Of a stretch of 747 nucleotides of DNA, positions 1 through 747 are shown in pieces. A model generated the notes under the pieces. That model made no database searches and was not told the DNA's origin. It saw nothing but the letters and a program-made list of their open reading frames with translations. Position 1 is the first letter of the stretch; every line of letters begins with the position of its first letter. A program made the translations under genes and the position numbers. The DNA comes from Escherichia coli (GTDB lineage Bacteria > Pseudomonadota > Gammaproteobacteria > Enterobacterales > Enterobacteriaceae): assembly GCF_003334385.1 (NCBI RefSeq), contig NZ_QOWN01000147.1; one strand, 5' to 3'.

Positions 1-19
1 GTGCCAATCCGGTGTGTGG
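1..19 (+). repeat. 19-bp shufflon-type repeat (putative Rci/sfx recombination site, left boundary of invertible segment)
   Basis: Seen directly: bases 1-19 GTGCCAATCCGGTGTGTGG are the exact reverse complement of 729-747 (19/19); identity stops at base 20 vs 728. From memory the R64 shufflon repeat consensus is GTGCCAATCCGGTNNNTGG (7-bp spacer GTGCCAA plus 12-bp right arm), which this fits. If so, the non-conserved left arm of the full site lies upstream of base 1, outside the window. Confidence 0.75.
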
Positions 20-352
20 CGAACGATTGGTGCACCTGACGGAAGTTACAGCAATCTGGGTTCTCACCGGGGAACATTTAACGGGAGAAATAACGGCAGA
101 GGAACTTTGTTTGTGTACGCTTCCGGTGGAAATGGTGCCGGTGGCGGTGATTGCGCCAACACATCAAATCTTCAGGGCTATGTGAACGGCGCTTTCATTG
201 GTATGAATGCCAGCAATAACCCCTCCTACGGAAAGACAGCATTTATTTCATTTGCCGTGCCAGTGGGAGCGTCATATCAAATCATCTCCAGACCAACACA
301 AAATTACGCCTGTGGTAACGGTGTTTTCTCTGTGTATGCCTATCAGATGTGA
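1..352 (+). CDS. pilV: 5'-partial CDS: alternative C-terminal variable cassette of a PilV-like minor pilin/adhesin (Gly/Asn/Ser/Tyr-rich), stop TGA at 350-352
   Basis: Frame is open from the window edge (codon phase starts at base 2: TGC CAA TCC GGT GTG TGG = CQSGVW) to the TGA at 350-352. The GTG at 14 listed in the ORF track lies inside the repeat with no Shine-Dalgarno upstream, so the true start is presumably upstream of the window. About 20 Gly in 112 residues and 2 Cys (GDCANT, NYACGNG). The gene symbol is inferred from the shufflon context, not from recognised protein sequence. Confidence 0.65.
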   Translation, partial: CQSGVWRTIGAPDGSYSNLGSHRGTFNGRNNGRGTLFVYASGGNGAGGGDCANTSNLQGYVNGAFIGMNASNNPSYGKTAFISFAVPVGASYQIISRPTQNYACGNGVFSVYAYQM

Positions 353-356
353 GTCC

Positions 357-747
357 CTAGCTGGCTTTAACAATGTAGTTGAATGCAATATTTTTGGGAC
401 GCATTTCTGTGGTACTCCCCTGTGCCCAGTATGGCATACCACTATGATGCCCTTTCAGCCATCCGCCACGTTCGTGATAGACGCCTGATTGATCGGCCTG
501 ATAACTCAGGAGTTGTCTGTTCCGATCACCATCAAGTCCCTTCCCGTTATCCCAGCCACGGATAAAAACACCGCGCAGATCGGGCAATTTACAGCTAGGA
601 TAAGCACGGGCAAGCTGAGGATACCGGGAACAGGAAAACGACTGGCCGTTCATCAACAGATAGCCTTGTGGAGGAGTGGCAGATGGCCACGGGATAGGGC
701 TTCCCACCGGGTAGGATTCAAAGCCAACCCACACACCGGATTGGCAC
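357..747 (-). CDS. pilV: 5'-partial CDS: alternative C-terminal variable cassette of a PilV-like adhesin with a phage tail-collar-like motif, stop TAG at 357-359 (read on - strand)
   Basis: On the - strand the frame is open from the window edge (phase starts at base 746: TGC CAA TCC GGT GTG TGG = CQSGVW) to the TAG at 359-357. Contains ...LMNGQSFSCSRYPQLARAYPSCKLPDLRGVFIRGWDNGKGLDGDRNRQLLSYQADQ..., which resembles the conserved core of phage tail-fibre collar domains (NGQ...YP.L...LPDLRG.F.RGWD) as I recall them. No RBS or start of its own. Gene symbol inferred from context. Confidence 0.65.
   Translation of the reverse strand, partial: CQSGVWVGFESYPVGSPIPWPSATPPQGYLLMNGQSFSCSRYPQLARAYPSCKLPDLRGVFIRGWDNGKGLDGDRNRQLLSYQADQSGVYHERGGWLKGHHSGMPYWAQGSTTEMRPKNIAFNYIVKAS
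729..747 (-). repeat. 19-bp shufflon-type repeat, inverted copy (putative Rci/sfx recombination site, right boundary)
   Basis: Seen directly: 729-747 CCACACACCGGATTGGCAC is the perfect reverse complement of 1-19. On the - strand it encodes the same C-Q-S-G-V-W peptide in the same phase as the left copy. Confidence 0.75.

Follow-up and report, generated by a model that had tools for sequence, protein, structure and literature searches.

The 747-nt stretch of Escherichia coli DNA analyzed here (the window, whose positions are used below unless a locus is named) is, with a probability that we put at about 0.97, one "A"-type invertible segment from the R64-type shufflon of an I-complex (IncK2/Z) conjugative plasmid. 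We give the same probability to the reading of its two converging, promoterless, start-less half-genes as alternative C-terminal tips of the PilV adhesin, a reading that would make the GTG codons in the terminal repeats internal valine codons of PilV. A comparison of related sequences supports this assignment of the GTG and argues against a conserved start. The shufflon biology of this segment is already known, and the use of the analysis is mainly practical, as a matter of annotation hygiene.

Genomic context and recombination sites

The window is 100% identical to part of the E. coli IncK2/Z conjugative plasmid NZ_CP147067.1 (locus L001). Matches were found on 415 plasmid records, 409 of which are typed as conjugative, and at 27 chromosomal places in E. 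coli genomes, and a search of 50,697 phage records returned no match to the segment. The order of the locus is pil operon, pilV, shufflon (with four or eight sfx sites), and tyrosine recombinase gene, pilV being the last gene of the type IVb thin-pilus operon. In every inspected locus (L001 to L006 and L010 to L018), the segment lies within the shufflon, in the interval between pilV and the recombinase gene, and it takes up three positions relative to pilV among isolates. The flanking recombinase, which lies beyond the window, is annotated as a "site-specific integrase" of 374 to 390 aa (L001, L002, L004, and L006); it belongs to PF00589 and shows weak Xer-type similarity.

A copy 99.9% identical to the window is present on the chromosome NZ_CP053234.1 (L018, 1-40747), on an island adjoining tRNA-Phe. 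Besides an integrase of its own, this island carries the complete pil operon, with pilV fused to the plus-strand cassette, as well as the recombinase, traE/traF, and the sigA autotransporter. On NZ_CP116171.1 (match H33), the window is matched in two pieces over 1523 bp (73377-74899) compared with its own 747 bp, and an IS1A transposase is annotated beneath the split match, which suggests that IS1 has inserted into the segment. In pMS1170_1 (NZ_CP056076.1, L005), the shufflon recombinase gene (4810-5981) is annotated as a frameshifted pseudogene, and the shufflon may therefore be locked; both window cassettes are silent in this plasmid.

The window is bounded by a perfect 19-nt inverted repeat, GTGCCAATCCGGTGTGTGG, with arms at 1-19 and 729-747 (Table 1). 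This sequence is "repeat-g" of the IncK2 shufflons (Seiffert et al. 2017, PMC5350095), a paper that distinguishes within the repeat a 7-bp core, the place of crossover, from a right arm of 12 bp; the sfx site is asymmetric and is recognized by the tyrosine recombinase Rci (PMC11852207). Both arms match what defines an R64-type site, namely, the core GTGCCAA followed by the conserved 12-bp right arm TCCGGTNNNTGG, and bases 4 to 13 read CCAATCCGGT. In the 10.7-kb loci L001 to L003, the 19-bp sfx motif GTGCCAATCCGGTNNNTGG occurs in four to eight copies, against 0.00 to 0.03 expected by chance; these copies alternate in orientation and bound two to four segments with 8-nt spacers between them. The 7 nt preceding the repeat are of four kinds in six loci (GGCCTCC, TACTTTC, GAGGCCA, and TGTCTCT), and the left arm, which lies beyond the 19 bp, shows no conservation, consistent with the asymmetric site described in PMC11852207. 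Positions 1 and 747 are the exact outer ends of both sfx repeats, as expected of a repeat-bounded unit in a short-read assembly. The longest contig carrying the 125-aa ORF of the minus strand is shorter than 2 kb in 51 of the 604 index blocks that have this ORF.

Every sfx site in L001 to L008 opens an ORF in the common register C-Q-S-G-x-W, where the x codon is GTG, TCG, TTG, ATC, ACG, ACC, or CGG, and the left sfx site of the window is read by pilV as (x)-C-Q-S-G-V-W. The original prediction, that the identical "start" of the two cassettes is a consequence of the repeat, stands in that the GTG lies inside the sfx site but has to be refined: the GTG is the variable triplet (positions 14 to 16) of the sfx right arm; it is therefore a variant that goes with the segment, and the repeat need not contain it. 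One cassette, "…GGNKVNYSACKWY," is found with repeat-h (TTG; CQSGLWLGG) on some plasmids and with repeat-g (GTG; CQSGVWVGG) on others (4506-4524 in L001 and L002 compared with 5224-5242 in L004 and 4756-4774 in L006), and both arms of the A segment change together from one plasmid group to another, as GTG/GTG or as ACG/ACG. There are hints here that right arms have been homogenized beyond the 7-bp core.

Table 1. Features of the 747-nt window
Feature	Position	Strand	Description
Left sfx site	1..19	+	7-bp crossover core GTGCCAA (1-7) and 12-bp right arm TCCGGTGTGTGG (8-19)
PilVA-type C-terminal cassette	2..352	+	CQSG + 112 codons + TGA at 350-352; frame open at the window edge; lacks its own start
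GTG of the left repeat	14..16	+	Read as internal Val codon of C-Q-S-G-V-W
In-frame GTG (GTG113)	113..115	+	PGAP start of an 80-aa "hypothetical protein" in the silent plus cassette; annotation artifact
Gap between converging stop codons	353..356	.	4 nt
Second C-terminal cassette, A' position	357..746	-	CQSG + 125 codons + TAG at 359-357; Phage Tail Collar domain
Mirror GTG of the right repeat	732..734	-	Read as internal Val codon of the minus cassette
Right sfx site	729..747	-	Perfect inverted copy of the left site

Fusion of the two cassettes to pilV

The list of open reading frames gives one ORF on each strand, 14..352 (+) of 112 aa and 357..734 (-) of 125 aa, both with a GTG start and both beginning with "MW." The codons ahead of the GTG in the cassette frame are TGC CAA TCC GGT, and on each strand the frame is free of stop codons as far as the window edge and so is open upstream. 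On natural plasmids, the upstream sequence is pilV. In NZ_CP147067.1 and in pNFI1 (L002), pilV continues across the right repeat to its end at window position 357; the resulting PilV has CQSGVW at residue 325, and the minus cassette then supplies exactly its 125 residues. In pTB-nb2 (L004) and on the chromosomal island L018, pilV crosses the left repeat and its end falls at window position 352, with CQSGVW at residue 329 and then the 112 residues of the plus cassette. The GTG thereby encodes Val329 of a 453-aa PilV in the minus fusion or Val333 of a 444-aa PilV in the plus fusion. Among the best 40 RefSeq E. coli rows, pilV is joined to the minus cassette in 15, to the plus cassette in 13, and to neither in 12, as sorted by annotated feature names, with the patterns verified against coordinates on L001, L004, L005, L006, and L018. 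The Pfam model Shufflon_N, which describes the N-terminal constant region, ends at model position 324/324, at the Gly directly before the Val encoded by the GTG. The dependence of both cassettes on a 5' region outside the window, which had been predicted from the letters of the window, is thus borne out by their in-frame fusion to pilV and by the end of Shufflon_N at the junction.

The minus cassette carries the Pfam Collar domain (PF07484; E = 9e-13), which gives the fusion protein the architecture PF04917 + PF07484, and matches the fiber tip of T4 gp37 (2xgf; E = 2e-16). It is also 40 to 49% identical to tail-fiber genes on non-mobilizable plasmid records, some of which have 6 to 8 copies. 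The plus cassette is 67 to 77% identical to the A cassettes of IncI-gamma/K1 and IncI2 plasmids and 42 to 47% identical to the tip of a fixed Serratia pilV, and is PilVA-like. A PDB sequence search with the plus cassette returned furin matches only (E = 0.42), which were insignificant and were discarded. No NCBIfam model matched either cassette, and the full PilV gave only a subthreshold match to the GspG pseudopilin.

It has been textbook knowledge since the work on R64 that the shufflon swaps the C-terminal tip of PilV and with it the recipient range of liquid conjugation. In the mechanism that we propose for the present segment, the constant region of pilV (about 324 to 328 codons, outside the window) would supply promoter, ribosome-binding site, start codon, and prepilin leader, and Rci, encoded at the far side of the shufflon, would recombine inverted sfx sites in any pairing, with crossover inside the 7-bp core GTGCCAA. 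Inversion of one or several segments would put one cassette in frame behind the constant region, and the 19-bp repeat would be translated as C-Q-S-G-x-W, as part of the protein, with the repeat GTGs supplying the "x" (Val). Because crossover would take place within the core, the right arm, including the GTG triplet, would travel with its own cassette. The resulting PilV variants would be tip adhesins that set recipient specificity in liquid mating. Catalysis by Rci at the core is proposed by analogy with published systems, and the arrangements found in different isolates suggest that Rci acts on the 747-bp segment itself; alternative PilV tips of R64 and TP114 have been shown to change recipient (LPS) specificity in liquid mating, which likewise suggests that the two tips of the window would confer LPS or recipient specificity. 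Inversion within related shufflons has been shown (PMC5430464, PMC9045228, and PMC11852207), and a constant N terminus with variable C termini, all of them functional adhesins, has been described (PMC9045228).

Repeat-internal GTG codons and rival readings

A different reading of the window would make the two ORFs independent small genes of 112 and 125 aa, expressed from the repeat GTG, or from an internal start such as GTG113, as free leaderless proteins. Gene callers and databases do list these exact products, and a silent cassette that lies co-directionally downstream of pilV would share the read-through transcript of pilV (L003 and L005). We nevertheless regard this reading as very unlikely, since neither a Shine-Dalgarno (SD) sequence within functional distance nor a promoter above chance was found for the repeat GTG. 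Pairing of the 16S anti-SD with the 20 nt before the GTG gives -2.3 kcal/mol, against a background median of -2.7 kcal/mol over all 977 start-like codons in L001; pilV's own starts reach -10.0 and -6.6 kcal/mol, and 15 annotated pil/tra starts average -5.0 kcal/mol. With the inter-segment spacer GAGGCCA placed before the repeat, the value becomes -5.6 kcal/mol, with the GAGG ending 16 nt before the GTG, a distance that is outside normal SD spacing. By these duplex energies, no SD stands above background at functional spacing before the repeat GTG. A consensus scan of the segment found no promoter-like sites above shuffle expectation (one sigma-70-like site against 0.8 expected, at 367-394 on the plus strand, past the end of the plus ORF, where it runs antisense to the minus ORF), and the promoter/terminator scan found no terminator above that expectation. 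The original prediction had placed GTG 14-16 and its mirror 734-732 inside the 19-bp repeat, without an SD sequence and without selection for initiation, and it agrees on all three counts with the perfect repeat arms and the "MW" beginnings of both ORFs, with the duplex energies, and with the distribution of the triplet among related cassettes.

That distribution also tells against independent genes. The triplet of the orthologous A cassette is ACG (Thr) on the IncI-gamma/K1 plasmid and GTG on the IncI2 plasmid, where it is kept on both arms of the A segment; it is TTA in the fixed Serratia pilV (junction CQNGLW), and other cassettes have TCG, ATC, ACC, or CGG in its place, so that the start codon is missing from the IncI-gamma/K1 orthologue, from Serratia, and from most other cassettes. 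An internal start at GTG113 has in its favor an AGAGGA 11 nt upstream (-6.0 kcal/mol), and it is the start of the 80-aa PGAP call, but the sequence upstream of it is conserved as protein. For the 31 codons from the repeat to GTG113 compared with the rest of the cassette, amino acid identity is 0.74 and 0.78 to IncI2, 0.65 and 0.72 to IncI-gamma/K1, and 0.42 and 0.47 to Serratia. Amino acid identity exceeds nucleotide identity in both parts for IncI2 and IncI-gamma/K1, though not for Serratia; this comparison was used in place of NG86 dN/dS, which is undefined because synonymous sites are saturated and dS is undefined. The codons upstream of GTG113 are thus as conserved at the protein level as the rest, and coding therefore reaches the repeat, through which the frame is open. 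Free products would, moreover, be without the prepilin leader needed for pilus incorporation, and PGAP now marks the minus copy as missing its N terminus. These comparisons support the view that neither cassette gives rise to an independent product. ORF finders choose the repeat GTGs because they are the first start-type codons after the window edge or an upstream stop. Two further ORFs in other frames, 12-185 (+) and 653-736 (-), start at repeat GTGs (12-14 and 736-734) and are like artifacts.

It is similarly improbable, to our mind, that in a silent co-directional cassette low-level, SD-independent initiation at the repeat GTG yields free leaderless receptor-binding domains with a regulatory or decoy role. 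Initiation could likewise occur at the TTG of repeat-h or at GTG113, which is preceded by AGAGGA. If such low-level initiation did take place, it would be no accident that the A segments of IncK2/Z and IncI2 have kept GTG on both arms.

Two readings set the window outside the shufflon altogether, and each has a negligible chance of being right. The collar domain, the match to T4 gp37, the identity to plasmid-borne tail-fiber genes noted above, and the annotation of the minus cassette as "phage tail protein" would all suit a phage tail-fiber host-range inversion segment of the Gin/Cin/Pin/Min type, operated by a serine invertase. We rejected it, since the 50,697 phage records gave no match, the locus, whether on a conjugative plasmid or on an island, always lies between pilV and a tyrosine recombinase gene (PF00589), the repeat is a published sfx sequence and not of the gix/hix type, and the upstream partner is a Shufflon_N pilin. 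Perfect terminal inverted repeats of 19 bp placed exactly at both window ends might equally be taken for those of a small transposable element carrying gene fragments, but the location between pilV and the recombinase gene is fixed (L001 to L006 and L010 to L018), neighboring unrelated segments are bounded by the identical repeat, and the flanks differ, with no target-site duplication; the transposon reading was rejected on these grounds.

Taken as a segment that encodes two PilV tips, the window is a documented case in which a start-type codon inside a recombination site leads to systematic mis-annotation. Exact-sequence look-up found the 112-aa "MW…" product as "prepilin, shufflon protein A" on 12 contigs and the 125-aa "MW…" product as "tail fiber protein / phage tail protein" on 633 contigs; in 8 inspected contigs, the 125-aa call lies between a Shufflon_N gene and a Phage_integrase gene. 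The mis-annotation as two small genes foreseen in the original prediction is therefore present in the databases, where both exact products stand alone, and the inspection of automated annotations that it proposed turned up the expected "MW" calls. When the minus cassette is silent, current PGAP labels it a pseudogene, "incomplete; missing N-terminus," and an older 132-aa "phage tail protein" call starts 8 nt outside the repeat. Chimeric ORFs named "prepilin, shufflon protein A," of 148 aa (L002, 4906-5352) and 161 aa (L006, 3867-4352), start in the neighboring segment, pass in antisense through its repeat, and go on through the 8-nt spacer and the left repeat of the window; they exist only in particular shufflon arrangements. 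The repeat-internal GTG thus seeds a widespread annotation error, with identical "MW…" proteins on hundreds of contigs. Such calls inflate the pan-genome gene counts of resistance plasmids (IncK2/Z, IncI1, and IncI2) and can mislabel plasmid contigs as phage-like.

Relation to known shufflons and phage inversion systems

The repeat-g-bounded segment of the IncK2 shufflons of pDV10, pDV45, and pTMSA1088 (PMC5350095) is the same object as the window. The IncK2 plasmids deposited as KR9053xx match at 99.9%, with an identical repeat-g and with rci and pilV as common neighbors; PMC5350095 lists the order of the repeats and does not describe cassette contents and annotation, and otherwise nothing substantive differs. 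To judge from the accounts of Komano 1999 given in PMC5350095, PMC11852207, and PMC5430464, segment A of R64 (IncI1) has the identical 7-bp core, a conserved right arm, and converging partial ORFs, and the R64 shufflon likewise has an adjoining tyrosine recombinase and the pilV constant region upstream.

Sequence comparisons with other I-complex shufflons were made with the IncI-gamma/K1 plasmid pS74 and one IncI2 plasmid; what is said of R64 is taken from the cited papers. The plus cassette shares about 67% identity with the IncI-gamma/K1 A cassette, whose pilV is annotated as "PilVA typeIV preadhesin," and the variable triplet is GTG in the window but ACG in the IncI-gamma/K1 A segment. IncI2 shufflons (R721 and TP114; PMC5430464 and PMC9045228) share the sfx sites, have GTG on both arms of the A segment, and have an A cassette 77% identical to that of the window, but they differ in the A' cassette and in the plasmid backbone, which is typed as MPF_T versus MPF_I. 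In TP114, all PilV variants have been found experimentally to be functional adhesins (PMC9045228). The A segment is 747 bp long here, compared with 574 bp in IncI-gamma/K1 and IncI2, and the A' half holds the 125-codon collar cassette here, compared with an unrelated 73-aa frame (CQSG included) in the other two groups. In Serratia proteamaculans, a plasmid pilV (L009, 2430-3863) has an A-type tip and the CQNGLW junction in one continuous gene; this locus lacks both sfx sites and a recombinase, and DotD/TraH comes immediately after pilV. Either the locus is pre-shufflon, or it is post-shufflon and fixed.

Phage host-range inversion systems (Mu G/Gin, P1 C/Cin, e14 P/Pin, and p15B Min) share the logic of a constant 5' part joined to inverted alternative 3' cassettes, and, as here, their crossover sites lie inside coding sequence; the collar domain is a homologous receptor-binding module. 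The Gin, Cin, Pin, and Min systems use serine invertases acting on 26-bp sites of the gix/hix type. In the present segment, by contrast, a tyrosine recombinase is paired with asymmetric sfx sites, and the product is a pilus adhesin where that of the phage systems is a tail fiber. A fusion of PilV to a phage tail collar domain under programmed inversion has been described at locus CP084655.1 (Milman et al. 2023, PMC9881135). By domain architecture, it resembles the protein made when the minus cassette is expressed (PF04917 + PF07484 in common), and the interpretation, a phage tail domain repurposed for recipient specificity, is one that we have in common with that study (PMC9881135). Given the collar cassette, its match to T4 gp37, and the unrelated frame that stands in its place in IncI-gamma/K1 and IncI2, the IncK2/Z A segment looks like a chimera with a phage receptor-binding module.
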